Below, in pieces: positions 19,513-29,054 of a stretch of 64,000 bases of DNA. The position numbers and the translations under genes are program-made. Within the stretch, counting starts at the first letter, position 1. Every line of letters starts with the position of its first letter. The stretch comes from Escherichia coli (GTDB lineage: Bacteria > Pseudomonadota > Gammaproteobacteria > Enterobacterales > Enterobacteriaceae), in the NCBI RefSeq assembly GCF_045037415.1, contig NZ_CP173438.1; one strand, written 5' to 3'. Below the pieces are notes generated by a model. That model worked only from the letters and a program-made list of their open reading frames with translations. It ran no database searches and had not been told where the DNA came from.

Positions 19513-21135
19513 TTACAGCTTCGGACCAGCCGCTACCAGCGCGGCACCCGCAGGGGTGTCGGTGTATTTATCGAAGTTGTCGATAAACAGTTTCGCCAGC
19601 GTTTCGGCTTTTTCCTGCCACTGTTCCGGAGAAGCGTAGGTGTTACGCGGATCGAGGATCTTCGTGTCTACGCCCGGCAGTTCGGTTGGGATCGCCAGGT
19701 TAAACATCGGCAGAGTGAAGGTTTCTGCGTTATCCAGCGAACCGTTGAGGATGGCGTCGATAATAGCGCGGGTATCTTTAATGGAGATACGTTTGCCAGT
19801 GCCGTTCCAGCCGGTGTTAACCAGATACGCCTGCGCACCCGCTGCCTGCATACGTTTCACCAGCACTTCTGCGTATTGGGTCGGGTGCAGCGACAGGAAC
19901 GCCGCGCCGAAGCAAGCGGAGAAGGTTGGCGTCGGTTCGGTGATGCCGCGCTCTGTACCAGCCAGTTTGGCGGTGAAGCCAGAGAGGAAGTGGTACTGGG
20001 TTTGATCGGCAGTCAGACGAGAAACCGGCGGCAGCACACCAAAGGCGTCTGCTGTCAGGAAAATAACTTTAGTTGCGTGGCCCGCTTTGGAAACCGGCTT
20101 AACGATGTTATCGATGTGATAGATCGGATAAGAAACGCGGGTGTTCTCGGTTTTTGAACCATCATCAAAGTCGATTGTGCCATCTTCACGCACGGTGACG
20201 TTTTCCAGCAGCGCATCGCGACGGATAGCGTTGTAGATTTCAGGTTCCGCTTCTTTCGACAGCTTGATAGTTTTCGCGTAGCAGCCGCCTTCGAAGTTAA
20301 ACACACCGTCATCATCCCAGCCGTGCTCGTCATCGCCAATCAGGCGGCGTTTCGGGTCGGTGGAAAGGGTGGTTTTACCGGTGCCGGAAAGGCCGAAGAA
20401 CACCGCAACATCGCCTTTCTCGCCAACGTTGGCGGAGCAGTGCATAGAAGCGATACCTTTCAGCGGCAGCAGGTAGTTCATCATCGAGAACATCCCTTTC
20501 TTCATTTCGCCGCCGTACCAGGTGCCGCCAATCAGCTGCATGCGCTCGGTCAGGTTAAACGCCACGAAGTTTTCGGAGTTCAGACCCTGTTCTTTCCACT
20601 GCGGGTTAGTGCACTTCGCGCCGTTCATAACGATAAAGTCTGGTTTGAAACCTGCCAGCTCTTCATCGCTCGGGCGAATAAACATGTTTTTGACAAAATG
20701 CGCCTGCCAGGCCACTTCGGTGATGAAACGGACGGAAAGACGAGTATCCGGGTTCGCACCACAGAAGGCGTCGACAACGAACAGACGTTTGCCGGAAAGC
20801 TGCCTGGTCACCAGGCCTTTCAGATGCTGCCAGGTTTCCGGAGAGAGAGGTTTGTTGTCGTTCTTACCTTTGCCTTTGTCTGCCCACCAGAAAGTATCGC
20901 GAGTGGTATCGTCACGAACGATATACTTATCTTTCGGTGAACGACCGGTGAAGATCCCGGTATCGACGGCAACGGCACCCAGATTAGTTAACACCCCGCG
21001 CTCATAACCGGTCAGGCTCGGGTCCAGCTCTTCCTGATACAGCAGATCGTAGCTTGGGTTGTAAACGATATCATGTACGTCACTGATACCATAAGCCTCG
21101 AGTTCTTGCGGGGTCAAACCATTGTTAACGCGCAT
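19513..21135 (-). CDS. pck: Phosphoenolpyruvate carboxykinase (ATP)
   Basis: Start trimmed to [16 protein letters not shown] (540 aa) inside the listed 563 aa frame; GLSGTGKTT kinase-1a motif. Confidence 0.95.
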
Positions 21136-21512
21136 TTCACTGCTCCTTAGCCAATATGTATTGCCTGAATAGTAAAGTCTTTTTGGGGGTGTTAACCGCG
21201 ACAAGGCTCATAGATTTACGTATCTGGAGAAATTCATATTTGACAAAAAACTCCGTGATTCCTGTCACGAAACGGTTGCTATTATCGCAGAAATAGCATT
21301 TTAGGTGTGGAAAATGTTCTCAAAAGGTTAAATCTTGGTTTATATGGCGGGAATATTGTGAGTGGAACCGCATTCATGAATGAAATTGATGCAAATTCAA
21401 TCGGTAAAGTATCGATTCACCACGCTAACTTTTTTTGATTATTTTCTGAAAAAAGCAAAATACTACTGCCCGATGCGATAATTAACCCACCTTTTGATTC
21501 TGGATAACCAAC

Positions 21513-23237
21513 ATGGATAACGTTGAACTTTCACCGGCAACACGCTGGGGGATGATTGCTACCGGATTACTTCAGGGGCTGGTTTGCTACCTGCTGATCG
21601 CCTGGCTTGCCGGAAAAAATCTCAGTTGGATTGTTTATGGCGTGCCTGCGACCGTCGCGTTTTCATCCGTTTTACTCTTCTCCGTGATCTCCTTTAAACA
21701 GAATCGCCTTTGGGGATGGCTGGCGCTGGTGTTTATTGCCACGCTGGGAATGAGCGGCTTGCTGAAGTGGCAAACTGATGGCATGACCCCCTGGAGAGCT
21801 GAAAAGGCGCTTTGGGATTTTGGCTGCTATCTGCTGCTGATGGCAATGTTGTTGCTACCGTGGATACAACAAAGCCTTCGCATCCGCAATGACAGTAGCC
21901 GCTATCGCTACTTTTACCAGTCAGTATGGCATAACGTACTTATATTACTGGTGATTTTTCTCGCCAATGGCCTAACGTGGCTGGTACTTTTACTGTGGAG
22001 TGAGTTGTTTAAACTTGTTGGCATCACGTTTTTCAAAACGCTCTTTTTTGCAACCGACTGGTTTATTTATCTCACGTTAGGTCTGGTTACCGCGCTGGCG
22101 GTGATCCTCGCGCGAACACAGTCACGTTTAATCGACTCTATTCAAAAGTTGTTCACGTTAATCGCCACGGGGTTGCTGCCGTTAGTATCATTGCTAACCC
22201 TGATGTTTATTATCACCCTGCCGTTTACGGGCCTGAGCGCGATTTCTCGCCACATCTCCGCCGCCGGGTTGCTGTTGACGCTGGCCTTTTTGCAATTGAT
22301 CTTAATGGCTATTGTCCGCGATCCGCAAAAAGCGTCACTTCCCTGGACGGGGCCATTGCGTTGCCTGATTAAAACCGCTTTGCTGGTTGCTCCGCTGTAT
22401 GTGTTCGTCGCCGCCTGGGCGTTATGGCTGCGGGTCGCTCAGTACGGCTGGACTGTCGACCGCTTGCAGGGCGCGCTGGCGGTGCTGGTGTTACTGGTAT
22501 GGTCGCTGGGGTATTTTGTCAGTATCGTCTGGCGTAAAGGGCAAAATCCCCTTGATCTTCAGGGCAAAGTGAACCTTGCGGTTTCGTTATTGGTGTTGGT
22601 AATACTGGTGCTTCTTAATTCGCCGGTGCTGGACAGTATGCGCATTAGCGTGAACAGTCATATGGCGCGTTATCAGAGCGGTAAAAACACGCCAGACCAG
22701 GTAACTATCTACATGCTCGAACAGAGCGGTCGCTATGGACGTGCGGCGCTTGAGTCGCTGAAAAGCGATGCCGAGTATATGAAAGACCCGAAACGCGCGC
22801 GGGATCTGCTGATGGCGTTAGATGGAGAGCAACATCTTCAGGAACAGGTATCGGAAAAAGTATTAGCCGATAATGTGTTAATTGCCCCAGGTTCTGGTAA
22901 ACCGGATGCGACATTCTGGTCGGCCTTAATCCAGGATCGCTATAACGTGATGACCTGTATTGAAAAAGACGCCTGCGTACTGGTCGAGCAAGATCTGAAT
23001 AGTGATGGTCAGGCGGAGCGGATCCTGTTTGCTTTTAATGATGACAGAGTCATTGTCTATGGCTTTGACTCAGCCAGAAAAGAATGGGACGCGCTTGATA
23101 TGAGTTTACTTCCGCGCAAAATAACGAAAGAAAAATTACTCACAGCTGCGAAGGATGGAAAACTGGGGACGAGGCCGAAAGCGTGGCGCGATCTGACGGT
23201 AGATGGTGAAACGCTGGAAATAAACTTAAGTAAGTGA
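21513..23237 (+). CDS. yhgE: Inner membrane protein YhgE (function unknown)
   Basis: 574 aa polytopic membrane ORF divergent from pck, matching recalled K-12 yhgE size and position. Confidence 0.85.
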
Positions 23238-23316
23238 CAACGCTTTTAACGGATACGACGCTGTATCTGACCAAAATAACTTGCGATTTATCCGGTGCGC
23301 GGTAAAACCCCGTCCT

Positions 23317-23517
23317 TCAGGGCGGGGATATAAGTTCGCCATCCATTTCAACCCGTTCAGCTTCAAAATCAGCACATACATTTGAAAAGTAAGTGCGTAG
23401 TTTTTCTGTCGCGTCATGGTCAAAAATCTGGCGTTGGTATTTGGCGACAAAGACCAGGTGAACATGCATCAGGAAAACACAATGCCTTCCACGCCGGATA
23501 TCGGTTTCTTTTTTCAT
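23317..23517 (-). pseudogene. tnpA: Truncated IS200/IS605 TnpA (HuH Y1 transposase), N-terminal fragment only
   Basis: 66 aa frame with HVHLVFVAKYQRQIF resembling the TnpA N-terminal motif (YHIVFAPKYRRQ-like); stops before the HuH and catalytic Tyr region; stop codon lies inside the left-end hairpin. Confidence 0.6.
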
Positions 23518-23539
23518 AGACCAAAATATAATTTGACCT

Positions 23540-24748
23540 GTGAAACGACTACAGGCATTTAAATTCCAGTTAAGACCCGGTGGTCAACAGGAGCGTGAAA
23601 TGAGGCGCTTCGCAGGCGCATGTCGTTTCGTTTTCAATCGTGCTCTGGCGCTTCAGAATGAGAATCATGAGGCCGGTAATAAATACATCCCTTACGGGAA
23701 AATGGCTTCCTGGCTGGTTGAGTGGAAAAATGCCACTGAAACGCAATGGCTTAAAGATTCTCCCTCACAGCCATTGCAACAGTCACTGAAAGACCTTGAG
23801 CGGGCTTACAAAAACTTCTTCCAGAAGCGGGCTGCTTTTCCCCGATTCAAAAAGCGGGGACAGAATGATGCATTCCGCTACCCGCAGGGCGTTAAGCTCG
23901 ATCAGGAAAACAGCCGTATTTTTCTGCCGAAACTTGGTTGGATGCGCTACCGGAATAGCCGTCAGGTCACGGGAGTTGTGAAAAATGTCACTGTCAGCCA
24001 GTCCTGCGGTAAGTGGTACATCAGTATTCAGACAGAAAGTGAAGTATCAACTCCGGTTCACCCTTCAGCATCAATGGTCGGGCTGGATGCTGGCGTGGCT
24101 AAACTCGCCACGCTGTCAGATGGCACAGTCTTTGAGCCTGTAAACAGTTTTCAGAAAAACCAGAAGACGCTGGCGAGACTTCAGCGACAGTTAAGCCGCA
24201 AGGTCAAATTCAGCAACAACTGGCAGAAGCAGAAACGCAAAATACAGCGGCTGCATTCCTGTATCGCAAATATCCGCAGGGACTACCTTCACAAAGTCAC
24301 AACGACCGTCAGCAAAAACCACGCAATGATAGTCATTGAGGATTTGAAGGTCAGCAACATGTCAAAGTCAGCAGCGGGTACGGTCAGCCAGCCGGGGCGC
24401 AATGTCCGGGCAAAATCAGGTTTAAACCGTTCGATACTGGATCAGGGCTGGTATGAAATGCGCCGCCAGCTTGAGCACAAGCAGCTCTGGAGTGGCGGTC
24501 AGGTGCTTGCTGTTCCGCCAGCGTACACAAGCCAGCGTTGCGCGTGCTGTGGTCATACAGCGAAAGAAAACCGCCTGTCACAAAGTAAATTCAGATGCCA
24601 GGTATGTGGATATACAGCGAACGCCGATGTAAATGGCGCTCGTAACATTTTAGCGGCGGGGCACGCCGTTCTTGCCTGTGGAGAGATGGTGCAGTCAGGC
24701 CGCCCGTTGAAGCAGGAACCCACCGAAATGATTCAGGCGACAGCCTGA
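23540..24748 (+). CDS. tnpB: TnpB (IS605 OrfB family; RuvC-like RNA-guided endonuclease family), InsQ-like
   Basis: 402 aa, GTG start; RuvC-I (VGLDAGV), RuvC-II (IVIEDLKV), zinc finger (CACCGH...CQVCG), RuvC-III ([10 protein letters not shown]); sequence recalled as IS609 InsQ-like. Confidence 0.88.
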
Positions 24749-24790
24749 ACGTAGCAGGGATCCACGTCCTTCAGGGCGTGGAGGATGTCA

Positions 24791-24830
24791 ATTCATAGGC
24801 CTGGTAAGCGCAGCGCATCAGGCCATTACG
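24791..24830. repeat. REP-like palindromic element next to the IS right end
   Basis: aggcctggtaagcgcagcgcatcaggcc resembles the REP consensus (GCCTGATGCGCT...CAGGCC). Confidence 0.5.
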
Positions 24831-24839
24831 TCGTAAAAT

Positions 24840-24861
24840 CCGGCAGAGTCCTCTCTGCCGG
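24840..24861 (-). terminator. Putative terminator downstream of hslO
   Basis: ccggcagag-tcctct-ctgccgg hairpin immediately after the hslO stop on the minus strand. Confidence 0.45.
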
Positions 24862-24870
24862 ACATACTCA

Positions 24871-25749
24871 TTAATGAACTTGCGGATCTGCCGGAGACGC
24901 GTTGTTGCGGATCTCGGCAATATCCATCGCATTGAACAGATAGTGGTTACCGCAGTAATCACAATGCATGTCAATTTCGCCATCTTCCGCCAGGATGCTA
25001 TCGACTTCTTCATCAGGCAGCGTTTTCAGCGCATCGGCGCAACGTTCACGCGAGCAGGTGCATTTGAACTCCACATCCTGCGGATCGTAAACCGTCACCT
25101 CTTCTTCGTGATACAAACGCCACAACACTTCGTTTGCCGGTAAAGTCAGCAGTTCTTCGGTTTTGATGGTTTCGGTTAGCGTCGCCAGGTGGTCAAAGTC
25201 GTCCTGCTGGGCATTTTGCGCAGGCATTACCTGCAACAACATACCGCCTGCAGCCGGTTTGCCGTCTACGTCGCCGGTGCGAATAAACAGGCGCGTCGGC
25301 AGCTGTTCAGAACGCATAAAGTAATCTTCCAGGCAGGCCGCCAGGGTATCACCTTCCAGACCAACCACGCCCTGATAGCGTTCGCCTTCGCTCGGGGTGA
25401 TGGTGATCACCACGTAACCATTGCCGACCAGCGTTTTCAGGTCGGCATTTTCTGGAATTTCGCCCTGCACGCGCGCCACACCGCGCATCTGCTGGTTGTT
25501 GTTACCGTTAATAACCGCCAGATTCATCGGACCGTCGCCTTGCAGCTGTACGGTGATATCACCATCAAACTTCAACGTAGCGGTTAACAGGCTGGTCGCA
25601 ACCAGCAGTTCTGCCAGCACGTTTTTAACGGGCTGCGGATAATCGTGATTCTCAAGGATCTGTTGCAGGGTTTCCGAAACGGTTACCAGTTCGCCGCGAA
25701 CGGCAAAGTTTTCAAACAGATAGCGATGTAATTGGTCATGTTGCGGCAT
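24871..25749 (-). CDS. hslO: Redox-regulated chaperone Hsp33
   Basis: Start trimmed to [15 protein letters not shown] (292 aa); C-terminal zinc centre CxC...CxxC. Confidence 0.94.
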
Positions 25750-25773
25750 AATCATCTCTCTTGCAGGTGACAG

Positions 25774-26175
25774 TTATTCACTGTCGCCGTGTTTAAATCG
25801 TAACAGGTCGCGGCGCTCTTTTTTGTCCGGGCGTCGGTCCGGATGCGGCATGGTTAAGGCATTAAGTTTACGTGCCAGCGCCATTTTTTCGCGTTTCTCT
25901 ACACTTTCCGCAGTCTCTTCATACAGCAAGACTGCCTCGCTGGCGGGGCGACGCTGTTCAGTAATCGCCTTTACAATCACCGTGCGTTCGTCATTTCCCT
26001 GGCGCAGAGTGAGCGTGGCATTCAGCTCGACGATTTTGCTCGGCTTGCTGCGCTGCCCGTTGTAATGCACCTTACCACCTTCGATCATTTCGCGGGCCAG
26101 CGCGCGGGTTTTATAAAAACGGGCGGCCCATAGCCATTTATCCAGTCGAACCTCAACAGCAGGTTTTTCTTTCAT
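25774..26175 (-). CDS. hslR: Ribosome-associated heat shock protein Hsp15
   Basis: 133 aa S4-domain protein directly upstream of hslO. Confidence 0.92.
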   Translation of the reverse strand: MKEKPAVEVRLDKWLWAARFYKTRALAREMIEGGKVHYNGQRSKPSKIVELNATLTLRQGNDERTVIVKAITEQRRPASEAVLLYEETAESVEKREKMALARKLNALTMPHPDRRPDKKERRDLLRFKHGDSE

Positions 26176-26185
26176 GGCGTCTCCT

Positions 26186-26854
26186 TCACATTAGCGAGGG
26201 GATCAGGCGGCGGTAGTCATTCAGTGACGGATGGCGCTGATACTGTTTCTCGGCAATCCCGGAGTCAGGATTAGTCACACCGAGGCAGTAACGAATACCA
26301 AATTGCGCGGCAGCATCGAGAATCGCTTCGCTGTCATCAATAAACAGCGTTCTTTCAGCTTTAAGACCCGTAGCTTCGGCCACCGCATGCCATAACCGCT
26401 GATCCTCTTTCGGATAACCAAATGTGTGGGTGGAAAGTAATAAATCAAGGTGTGCGTCCAGACCGGTATGCTCAAGTTTTACCGCCAGGTTGTGCGGATG
26501 CGCATTGGTGAGCAAAATTCGCTGTTTACCGCTGGCTTTCAGTGCCTCAAGAAACGGAATGGTATCTTCACGCAGTACGGCACGCGGTCCCATCTCGGTG
26601 GTCATCGCACAGATATCCAGACCCAGTTGCTCACTCCAGTAATCAAGACAGTACCAGTTTAGCGTATGCTGTACGTCGTGATATTGCTGGCGCATATATT
26701 CCATCGCTTCCTGTGGCGTAACTCCGTTTTTCGCGCCCCATGTTTCAGGCACCAGCTTTTGCCAGAAATAGTTATCGAAGGCGAGGTCGAGCAACGTGCC
26801 GTCCATATCCAGCAGAACGGTATCTACGTCCTGCCAGGCAATGTTGATATGCAT
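26186..26854 (-). CDS. yrfG: HAD-family GMP/IMP nucleotidase YrfG
   Basis: Start trimmed to MHINIAWQDVDTVLLDMDGTLLDL (222 aa); HAD motif I DMDGT. Confidence 0.88.
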   Translation of the reverse strand: MHINIAWQDVDTVLLDMDGTLLDLAFDNYFWQKLVPETWGAKNGVTPQEAMEYMRQQYHDVQHTLNWYCLDYWSEQLGLDICAMTTEMGPRAVLREDTIPFLEALKASGKQRILLTNAHPHNLAVKLEHTGLDAHLDLLLSTHTFGYPKEDQRLWHAVAEATGLKAERTLFIDDSEAILDAAAQFGIRYCLGVTNPDSGIAEKQYQRHPSLNDYRRLIPSLM

Positions 26855-26918
26855 GAGGGAAATCTCCAGAGTGAAGCAATTTGCGCGACAGGGTAGCATA
26901 ACCTGCCGCGCAAACGTG

Positions 26919-29054
26919 TTATTCGATAAGGCTTTCGGAAGGGGTGATCAGTTGCGGGTTCAGGCAGCTTTCATAATAGGCCTGAATCTTCATCATGCGA
27001 GTACGATGACGCTGGTAACGACGCCAGGCCTGTACGCCATTATAAATGGCGCTACCCAGCATCGTCAGTAGCAGCAGCGTGGTGCTGAGATAGCGCCACA
27101 GACCGGAACGATCCGGGATCGGATGAAGGCCAATATGCTGCGTACCATTGGCGTCAGTGAAGATTTTTGTGACGATACCTTCGGCGTTAAACGGCGTATG
27201 CATCAGCATTTGTGCCAGTTTCTGGAAAGCGTTCCACTGTTCTTGCGGCGGATAGTCGTAAAGTGATGCCGAAGGCCAGGGCTGATCAACAAAATCGCTG
27301 CCTTCGTCGCTGACAATCAGGAACCCGCCGGGGGCCGGACTGTTTAGTGATTGTGCCGCTCGCGCCGTTTCATGCGTGATAAACGGCGCGGTAGAGGTGG
27401 CCACCAGGTTATCCAGCGATTCCGCACTCACCGGGCGTAATAACACATTCACGCCATCGAGTTTCCCGGCGTTGGCGCGTTTTACCAGCGCGTCCCAGTC
27501 TTTACTGTTGCCGAGATTGACCAGCGCATTTTTCAGTCGCACACAGTCATCTTTGGCAGAACACAGATCCGCTGTCTTCAGTACTATGTCGCCAAAATCA
27601 TCAAGCAATACCATGCCGGATTTTTGAATTGCTGAACGTAATGAGGCGCTGACGCGAGATTCATCTTCCGGTTTAGGGTGCAGCTGGCGATTAACTGCTT
27701 CGGTCAATGCCGTCGCTTTGTTGACCAATTCAGATTCTGGTAATGGCAATGAGCGGGCGTCGTTCCAGATGATCTGCGAGCAGTCAAACGGTAAAAAAGG
27801 TGAGTTGGTTTTCGCGCTCCAGGTACCGGAAGTGCGAATATTACACATTCCCGTACCGCTAATACGCAATGTATCGCCAACCCGCACGCCAGCGTCAGCC
27901 AGTTGTTTCACGCTGGTGGCTTCAATGGTCTGCGCGCCTTTCATCCACGAGAGGGTGAATTTCAGCGGCATATCCAGCGGGATCCAGAATAACAGCATAA
28001 ACAGCACCAGTAGCGAGCCCGCAGCGATAATCGTACTGCGCAGCCAGTGCTGTAACGGAAAGTTTTTTACTTCATCATGGAGCGAAAGATATCGCCCCTG
28101 ACGCACTACGTGGCGGTCGAGATAGATATCGATATCGGTTTGTTGGCCGAGATCCTGAGCAATGTAGGGCTGCCAGTGTGCGGGATAGACCAGGTCGATA
28201 ATACCGAGTGAAATATTGTTGATCTGTTCCTGATCGTTTTCGCCAAACAATCCCCAACGACGGGGTGTACCGCGCAGACAATGAATTTCCCGCAGGGAGG
28301 ATTTTGCCGGGGGCGCGAATAGCCCCCACAGACCTGCGCCCAGCAGCAGTAACGCGCCGCCTGCCAGCCACGGAACAAAGACATCCGGGGTAATCAGGCA
28401 GAAAAAGAGCATCAGGAAGGAGGCGACAATCAGCAACGCTTCGCGCAGCCCGCGCGGACGACTCAGCGCATATTCTTCATGCGTTTCTTTGCGAATATTG
28501 AGCAGCTCTATTTGCTCGCTCTCTTCCCCGCGAATCGACGCCTGCGTTGACGGAACAGGTTGCAAGGCATAGCCGCGAATTTCCTGCATGTACTCCTGCA
28601 GCGTATGACCGTTGAGTGAAATAACCAGCGGCAGCGAATCGGTATGAATCAGTTCAACGGTATTCTCATCGTTGATGTACTGTTCCCAGAAAGGGGGCAG
28701 GTGGACTTCTACCGAATCGAGGTAGTAACGCCATTTATTCGGATCGTCGGTAGAGATGCCATAACGCGTGATAGCGTGTGTCAGCATCATGACGTTGTTG
28801 CTTTCGGCATTCAGCGCCAGAGAGATCGGTGCCGCGCTGGCTCCCGTTGGGCCAGGCACCTGTAATACCTGCGTCAGGCTCTCAAGATAATTTTCAACGG
28901 CGCTACGTTCTTCAGATGTGAGTTTACGCGTTTGCGCATCCGCGAAGGCGTTGGTCCAGGGCAGCTGACGCCGTCTGGATCGCACTTTTATCAGCCATCC
29001 CGCAAGTAGTGAGCAGGCCAGCAAAGCAGCTAAAAAAATCACAATGGTGCTCAT
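26919..29054 (-). CDS. igaA: Intracellular growth attenuator IgaA (YrfF), inner membrane regulator of the Rcs system
   Basis: 711 aa membrane ORF; position upstream of yrfG-hslR-hslO. Confidence 0.9.
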   Translation of the reverse strand: MSTIVIFLAALLACSLLAGWLIKVRSRRRQLPWTNAFADAQTRKLTSEERSAVENYLESLTQVLQVPGPTGASAAPISLALNAESNNVMMLTHAITRYGISTDDPNKWRYYLDSVEVHLPPFWEQYINDENTVELIHTDSLPLVISLNGHTLQEYMQEIRGYALQPVPSTQASIRGEESEQIELLNIRKETHEEYALSRPRGLREALLIVASFLMLFFCLITPDVFVPWLAGGALLLLGAGLWGLFAPPAKSSLREIHCLRGTPRRWGLFGENDQEQINNISLGIIDLVYPAHWQPYIAQDLGQQTDIDIYLDRHVVRQGRYLSLHDEVKNFPLQHWLRSTIIAAGSLLVLFMLLFWIPLDMPLKFTLSWMKGAQTIEATSVKQLADAGVRVGDTLRISGTGMCNIRTSGTWSAKTNSPFLPFDCSQIIWNDARSLPLPESELVNKATALTEAVNRQLHPKPEDESRVSASLRSAIQKSGMVLLDDFGDIVLKTADLCSAKDDCVRLKNALVNLGNSKDWDALVKRANAGKLDGVNVLLRPVSAESLDNLVATSTAPFITHETARAAQSLNSPAPGGFLIVSDEGSDFVDQPWPSASLYDYPPQEQWNAFQKLAQMLMHTPFNAEGIVTKIFTDANGTQHIGLHPIPDRSGLWRYLSTTLLLLTMLGSAIYNGVQAWRRYQRHRTRMMKIQAYYESCLNPQLITPSESLIE

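Follow-up and report, generated by a model that had tools for sequence, protein, structure and literature searches.

An IS609 insQ gene with an open frame, stranded in ST131-type Escherichia coli and probably drifting

The open reading frame at 23540..24748 (+) of the window (the whole stretch of 64,000 nucleotides analysed here, from Escherichia coli contig NZ_CP173438.1, assembly GCF_045037415.1) is insQ, the tnpB of a non-autonomous IS609 copy of the IS200/IS605 family. We consider it probable that this copy is immobilised and stranded, and that its intact-frame insQ sits idle as a drifting relic. Gene, family, mechanism and annotation were all established beforehand. On the function of IS609 or insQ in E. 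coli, our literature search returned only genome surveys, one ortholog purification and one mutation-accumulation study. The first-pass annotation of this DNA had proposed that an intact tnpB beside a crippled tnpA may be maintained for a function other than transposition. The element, the protein, its RNA and its population history are considered in turn.

The IS609 copy between yhgE and hslO

Over about 2.1 kb around the frame the window matches ST131-type E. coli chromosomes at 100% identity, and in these chromosomes the insertion lies between yhgE and hslO. PGAP labels the frame WP_000826444.1, 'RNA-guided endonuclease InsQ/TnpB family protein' (insQ). Copies at other loci carry the label IS609, and the O157:H7 copy has both an intact 143-aa tnpA and a 402-aa tnpB. 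The window tnpB is 98.0-99.0% identical in nucleotides to K-12 insQ (ydcL-ydcO) and to O157:H7 IS609. It shares with them the 402-aa length, the GTG start, the left and right ends (LE and RE), the TTAT target and the RefSeq annotation. What sets it apart from other E. coli IS609 copies is the yhgE-hslO site and two substitutions, Y313H and R318S.

The boundaries were set by comparison with an insertion-free strain. The empty site reads ...GCGATTTAT joined directly to TTCATAGGCC..., and the copy spans 23292-24791 (1500 bp), with the insertion point between ...GATTTAT and TTCATAGG.... The target site or TAM, TTTAT with the core TTAT (23287..23291, +), stands directly 5' of the left end. TTAT occupies this place at each of the 10 separate E. 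coli insertion sites examined; in other species the relatives show TTAT or TTAC there. The LE (23292..23334, +) has a subterminal hairpin at 23308-23328 and is 93-100% identical to other IS609 left ends. Its hairpin recurs in the RE in direct orientation (repeat family D2). The RE (24761..24791, +) consists of a hairpin at 24761-24782 followed by GGATGTCAA, and ends at 24791. Across 29 related loci conservation runs to ...GGAGGATGTCAA (GTCAA) and the sequences are unrelated from the next base on. Since conservation stops at GTCAA and the empty site agrees, the RE boundary is confirmed. The LE is 97.6% and the tnpB-RE segment 97.9% identical to O157 IS609, against a reference-element threshold of at least 95%.

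The adjoining tnpA is crippled, just as the first-pass annotation had it. The remnant (23335..23517, -) is divergent from tnpB and keeps roughly the first 60 codons of a Y1/HUH transposase. BLAST against a full IS609 places a 247-bp internal deletion at the junction 23334/23335, and both the HUH motif and the catalytic Tyr are gone. The NCBIfam model transpos_IS200 matches the remnant at model positions 2-54 of 126 with 44 bits, below its cut-off of 55, and in PGAP it is marked as a pseudogene, an incomplete transposase. An autonomous IS609 has an intact 143-aa Y1/HUH TnpA. The window copy has none, so it is a non-autonomous derivative. Its damage is a deletion, whereas some IS609 copies elsewhere have point nonsense mutations in tnpA. 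Several tnpA genes are flagged by PGAP as 'missing C-terminus'; these have only lost the stop codon (TAG to CAG) and may still function.

One can imagine that a TnpA encoded elsewhere in the genome moves this copy. In the two ST131-type genomes examined, one for each tnpB allele described below, the only other IS609 locus is ybcM-yedK. Its TnpA diverges after ...GYFVSSC and is without the RQYIEQQ tyrosine helix, and its tnpB ends after about 95 aa. The 3' half of tnpB is single copy in window-type genomes (one place per record). No functional IS609 TnpA was found in the sampled ST131-type genomes, the second locus having been read in two of them. In K-12 mutation-accumulation lines IS609 never transposed (PMC5009759).

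The TnpB protein

The frame runs uninterrupted for 402 aa from a GTG start with zero internal stops, so the earlier description of a full-length gene free of frameshifts was correct. All five motifs that had been read from the letters are present: VGLDAGV (RuvC-I, residues 180-186), IVIEDLKV (RuvC-II, 264-271), CACCGH (334-339) and CQVCG (353-357) of the zinc finger, and the ten-residue RuvC-III motif at 361-370. Pfam finds HTH_OrfB_IS605 (3.9e-14), OrfB_IS605 (the RuvC domain; 1.8e-34) and a Cas12f1-like TNB zinc ribbon (1.2e-22). With the NCBIfam model guided_TnpB (NF040570) the protein reaches 381.5 bits, the cut-off being 100. In a phmmer search of the PDB the protein matches ISDra2 TnpB of D. 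radiodurans (8exa/8h1j) at 1.6e-53, with 37.7% identity across 355 aligned positions. ISDra2 TnpB is the best natural solved relative in that search; an AI-designed nuclease ranks above it.

The alignment with ISDra2, which had been suggested as a check, leaves the active site unsubstituted. D183, E267 and D363 (codons 24086-24088, 24338-24340 and 24626-24628, +) align with the catalytic D191, E278 and D361, and the triad is intact. C334 and C337 align with C331 and C334 of ISDra2 as the first CxxC. C353 and C356 form the second, which completes a CCCC zinc finger. The two proteins have the same domain order, and W317 corresponds to W313 of ISDra2. A homologous-protein search gave only near-identical E. 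coli sequences. Divergence was instead taken from a 50%-cluster search and a collection scan that yielded 66 related loci (Citrobacter, Serratia, Xenorhabdus, Morganella, Klebsiella, Yersinia, Photorhabdus and others). The catalytic triad and zinc-finger positions are kept in 121-127 of the 129 representatives of the cluster search. Judged by its domains, its NCBIfam score, its D-E-D triad and its CCCC finger, the frame encodes a TnpB, and the family assignment made at first pass (an OMEGA-type RNA-guided nuclease, ancestral to Cas12) was right.

The GTG is the true N-terminus, because the alignment with ISDra2 takes in residues 3-20 and the corresponding codon is ATG in relatives from other genera. 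M21 was considered as the native start, as an AGGAG Shine-Dalgarno-like sequence is present, and was rejected: residues 1-20 are conserved, and in ISDra2 this part belongs to the WED domain.

A protein with this fold could also be imagined as a miniature CRISPR-Cas12f-type effector that is not a transposon gene at all. PADLOC profiles for Cas12f/Cas12u do match at 6e-88, and Cas12f has a homologous RuvC/TNB core in common with the window TnpB, but such a match is expected from shared ancestry. NCBIfam models for Cas12f2 and C2c8 fall far below their cut-offs, whereas guided_TnpB clears its own by a wide margin. The ends of the element are of the IS200/IS605 type, and it retains a tnpA remnant. 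There is no repeat array within ±3.5 kb (20000-28500), where the only short repeats are the LE and RE hairpins; a Cas12f system would differ in having a CRISPR array, and here the guide would come from the transposon end. Cas12f acts as a dimer. TnpB is monomeric in its solved structure (PMC10097598). With the adjacent CRISPR array absent we reject the type V effector, a reading that is barely credible.

One IS609-type TnpB ortholog was purified to test trans-cleavage and assayed with TTAT as its TAM (Nucleic Acids Res 2026, PMC12781874). It clearly belongs to the same subfamily, with near-identical motifs (one of them 20 residues long), and its TAM agrees with the TTAT of the insertion sites. 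It is metagenomic and has many differences, for example QLEYKQLWRGG against the corresponding 11 residues of the window, and no report of its activity was found in the text consulted.

The predicted ωRNA, its guide and its target

In ISDra2 the ωRNA comes from the tnpB 3' end and the RE, and the same appears to hold here. The last 190 nt of 24 loci from different genera were aligned. The consensus fold comprises 48 pairs, which make up 8 helices, and 97.3% of cells form standard pairs; when partners are slid by 1-3 columns only 40-51% do. Compensatory changes occur in 15 pairs against 4.6 ± 1.3 in shuffles, and 0 of 500 shuffles reach 15. Covariation is seen in helices 3, 5 and 7, inside or just past the coding region (for example G-C in 13 and A-U in 10), which argues for an RNA structure beyond the ssDNA hairpin recognised by TnpA. 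This covariation points to a structured ωRNA at the tnpB 3' end and RE that would end at the element boundary. The predicted scaffold lies at about 24645..24791 (+), with a possible extra 5' hairpin at 24622-24638 (+). The window's own sequence has an MFE of -60.6 kcal/mol (z = -2.69). Rfam yielded no match at the gathering threshold; the three below it, HgcC, sot0042 and RAGATH-18, all fall within 24621-24801 and served as pointers to the ωRNA region. Helix 2 joins 24645-24650 to the six bases 24783-24788, which stand at -9 to -4 relative to the guide. The arrangement resembles the closing pseudoknot of the ISDra2 ωRNA, in which a guide-adjacent segment pairs with a distant upstream one (PMC10097598).

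Other features differ from ISDra2. The predicted scaffold is about 147 nt here against 116 nt, and tnpA is divergent from tnpB, whereas the two are co-oriented in ISDra2. The TAM of ISDra2 is TTGAT, not TTAT. The TAM-contact residues S56, K76, F77, T123 and N124 of ISDra2 are A56, S76, Q77, Q116 and G117 in the window protein.

By homology the window protein would be a single-RuvC, ωRNA-guided dsDNA endonuclease. The ISDra2 complex of TnpB and ωRNA cleaves dsDNA that bears the TAM followed by a guide-complementary sequence (PMC10097598). If the layout is the same, the ωRNA would be read from the tnpB 3' end through the RE into the flank, and flanking DNA from 24792 on would serve as guide. On that analogy (PMC10097598) the predicted guide is the first 16 nt of the flank, TTCATAGGCCTGGTAA (24792..24807, +), which enters a REP-like palindrome. 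Scanning the + strand found no σ70-like promoter for tnpB or the ωRNA, so the scan lends no support to their expression.

TTAT plus this guide would specify only the uninterrupted yhgE-hslO site. TTAT+TTCATAGGCCTGGTAA is that site, and it is found in 565 of 5426 complete genomes; the insertion is carried by 549 of the 5426. The guide matches nothing in the window except its own site. There it is preceded by TCAA, not TTAT, so the resident copy is not a target. The occasions for the nuclease to act would be an empty site re-created through excision or one arriving on incoming DNA. Cleavage would then favour repair from the element-bearing copy, that is, retention or homing. The non-transposase function at which the first-pass annotation hinted would be this known ωRNA-guided cleavage of the TAM-flanked empty site, and the parts it needs (TAM, ωRNA and guide) seem to be present.

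We argue that in the window genome the system would be idle. Its tnpA is without the catalytic half, and no TAM-flanked target lies in the window. Even where a target did arrive, RNA-guided, TAM-dependent dsDNA cleavage by this TnpB would be expected by analogy, with full activity uncertain given Y313H.

TnpB relatives have been exapted as repressors (TldR), and the guide lies in the hslO-proximal intergenic region. It might thus be proposed that this TnpB is a domesticated RNA-guided transcriptional regulator of hslO/hslR or yhgE. The comparisons speak against it. TldR is nuclease-dead, whereas the D/E/D triad and the zinc finger are intact here. Mobile IS609 copies at 9 further loci encode a protein with 98% identity to this one, and each of these copies has a different flank and therefore a different guide. 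The guide's genomic match is also without a TAM. A TldR-like repressor is rejected with the RuvC active site intact, and we regard regulation of these genes as very improbable.

Selection on tnpB and tnpA across E. coli

A case for a maintained copy comes from the species as a whole. A full-length tnpB is found in 4867 of 5426 complete genomes (about 90%), the median genome having 2 places; tnpB places number 10,967 over the 5426 genomes. Segregating changes among 16 E. coli IS609 copies number 39 synonymous and 42 nonsynonymous, which gives ω≈0.31 (P=3e-7), and the differences between copies partly predate each insertion. At ydcL-ydcO, where tnpA is dead, tnpB has ω≈0.41 (P=0.04). In 18 sampled copies at 10 loci, tnpA was disrupted independently at least 6 times and tnpB once (binomial P≈0.002), with the caveat that copies at the same locus are not independent. 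The tnpA disruptions are stop mutations at L96 (several loci) and at Y76, two different frameshifts, the 247-bp deletion and a C-terminal truncation. The sole tnpB disruption counted is a frameshift allele, and tnpB is 2.8 times longer than tnpA. Since tnpB is disrupted far less than the shorter tnpA, some selective force keeps it open in E. coli.

The maintained reading holds that TnpB and its ωRNA are functional and selected in the window copy itself. At the element level this would mean retention or homing, with TnpA supplied in trans or with an empty allele arriving by conjugation or transduction. At the host level it could mean, for example, that incoming DNA with the empty allele is kept out. 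It accords with the counts above and with LE, RE, TAM, ωRNA scaffold and catalytic residues that are all intact, and the 565 genomes with an empty site imply that targets circulate within the species. However, the asymmetry between the two genes could equally stem from selection against an active transposase, and the ω between copies is mostly pre-insertion history. Given also the history of this locus, described next, we find active maintenance of the window copy rather unlikely.

Two alleles of one insertion

The same insertion exists as two alleles. The sister allele shares its flanks and its tnpA deletion junction with the window allele, and has a 1-bp deletion in codon 5 of tnpB. It also has K8T, Q10R, S298T and K350Q, and PGAP restarts its protein at M21. 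It occurs at 100% identity in 135 records (about 135 complete genomes), strain SE15 among them, with no obvious cost. In ISDra2, residues 1-12 are in the WED domain and N4 stacks on the first heteroduplex base pair (PMC10097598), and by that analogy the frameshifted allele is probably dead. The first-pass annotation had named frameshifts in close relatives as the mark of a decaying copy, and the sister allele has such a frameshift.

The window allele keeps its frame but has changes of its own. Codon 313 (24476-24478, +) reads CAC (His), the lineage-specific Y313H, and codon 318 (24491-24493, +) has R318S. Both are derived on the window-allele branch, and 419 records contain an exact 90-mer with the two together. 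Each of the 15 other E. coli copies has Tyr at position 313, as do 27 of 28 related loci and 119 of the 129 cluster representatives (92%; 39-62% identity); D183 is kept in 121 of these 129. By these alignments Tyr313 is as conserved as the catalytic residues. It aligns with Y309 of ISDra2, which together with W313 stacks on the first guide-target base pair and aids unwinding (PMC10097598). The window has His in place of this stacking Tyr. We argue that Y313H probably weakens the window TnpB. It must be noted that His may still stack on the base pair, in which case the change may be tolerated. On the effect of Y to H, a TnpB mutational-scanning preprint makes no mention of Y309. The copy is thus intact in frame, triad and zinc finger, but not at a position where its diverse relatives nearly all have Tyr.

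Since the alleles split, tnpB has gained 1 frameshift along with 6 nonsynonymous and 3 synonymous changes. These fit neutrality, and the counts are too small to exclude moderate constraint. The dN/dS comparison that had been proposed as a check therefore has two answers: purifying selection across the family, but neutral-like counts at the window locus. The suggestion of another function divides in the same way. It agrees with the family-wide signal, but it is not supported at this locus, given the frameshifted sister, Y313H and the lack of a partner TnpA in the sampled genomes. We argue that the window copy is best read as a stranded relic that would be evolving under little or no constraint, its frame still open from youth and not from a new host function.

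What the copy means for E. coli and IS609

The window copy matters little as a discovery; it is an ordinary and probably drifting transposon relic. What the analysis does provide is a full map of an E. coli IS609 TnpB/ωRNA unit, with TAM, RE boundary, predicted ωRNA helices and guide. It is also a caution that an intact frame and catalytic triad do not make a functional protein, as Y313H and the frameshifted sister allele illustrate.

A broader idea is that IS609 tnpB and its ωRNA are kept by selection after tnpA has died, as homing or exclusion nucleases that cut empty-site DNA, whether incoming or recombinant. We hold this to be distinctly improbable. If it were true, modules fixed at chromosomal sites in about 90% of E. 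coli would form a species-wide set of RNA-guided 'allele guards' and not be decaying transposon genes, with the ST131 copy as one that has recently been weakened. There is also a small population signal. In E. coli the IS609 tnpB is conserved and its tnpA is repeatedly destroyed, which could make the species a natural test of what sustains an orphan tnpB.

Changes in tnpA across IS609 copies

An identical nonsense mutation in tnpA is found in IS609 copies at five distinct chromosomal loci. It changes codon 96 from TTA to TGA (L96*) and is carried by the compared loci L002 (a full-length IS609), L004, L008, L009, L081, L082 and L083. It reached these loci either by mobilisation of tnpA-null elements in trans or through gene conversion. 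At the ydcL-ydcO locus, tnpA of other strains has Y76* or a frameshift, without L96* (L086, L087).

Many IS609 copies have also lost the tnpA stop codon by a TAG to CAG change (L002, L004, L007-L009, L080, L081 and L083-L087). The reading frame then runs on through the hairpin of the left end, and PGAP labels tnpA in such cases as "missing C-terminus". The catalytic core of tnpA may be intact in L007, L080, L084 and L085 despite this flag.

The two genomes represented by L078 and L079 have the window's insertion and a second IS609 locus, ybcM-yedK (2333-3170 in L078 and L079). There PGAP calls an intact CDS, an "IS200/IS605 family transposase" of 174-179 aa. Its C-terminus is unrelated sequence and the helix with the catalytic tyrosine is absent. 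The tnpB beside it keeps only about its first 95 aa and directly adjoins a yedK pseudogene.

State of tnpB

Some derivatives have tnpB without any tnpA. These are L010 (1416-2714) and L013 (Citrobacter amalonaticus), in which a tnpB with an ATG start lies about 40 bp downstream of the left end. The L010 derivative is on the phage-like plasmid pE148-2, flanked by lysozyme and head-processing genes. Four tnpB matches from the E. coli genome scan (H153, H177, H193, H195) have lesions, in the form of a 1-bp difference in length, an IS1 inserted into the gene, or deletions of 11 bp and 75 bp. Decayed E. coli copies therefore exist, but they are rare when the best copy per record is taken in a spread sample of 60 records.

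The GTG start of the window's tnpB has no Shine-Dalgarno-like sequence. However, codon M21 has a good one, AGGAG, ahead of it (AGGAGCG at 23596-23602, then ATG at 23600). PGAP starts the protein of the frameshifted allele at M21, giving 382 aa. Initiation at this codon could produce an N-terminally truncated TnpB.

The window and L011, the sister allele of the yhgE-hslO insertion, differ at 15 positions in 125 bp (23445-23568). This patch covers the tnpA 5' remnant, the intergenic spacer and the first 29 nt of tnpB. The other roughly 1220 bp have just 6 differences, and the flank has 1 in 600 bp. The patch looks like local conversion or hypermutation.

The predicted ωRNA and its guide

A REP-like palindrome lies directly past the right end at 24797-24850 (GGCCTGGTAAGCGCAGCGCATCAGGCC...CCGGCAGAG...CTCTGCCGG), so the predicted guide enters repeated extragenic sequence. 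Genomes vary in the yhgE-hslO spacer; a 71-nt empty-site probe matches at all in only 1114 of 5426 genomes. On the plus strand, 24621-24801 has sub-threshold Rfam similarity to HgcC, sot0042 and RAGATH-18, coinciding with the predicted ωRNA. This suggests that these three families are ωRNA relatives. It also suggests that the enterobacterial IS609 ωRNA is captured by no Rfam model.
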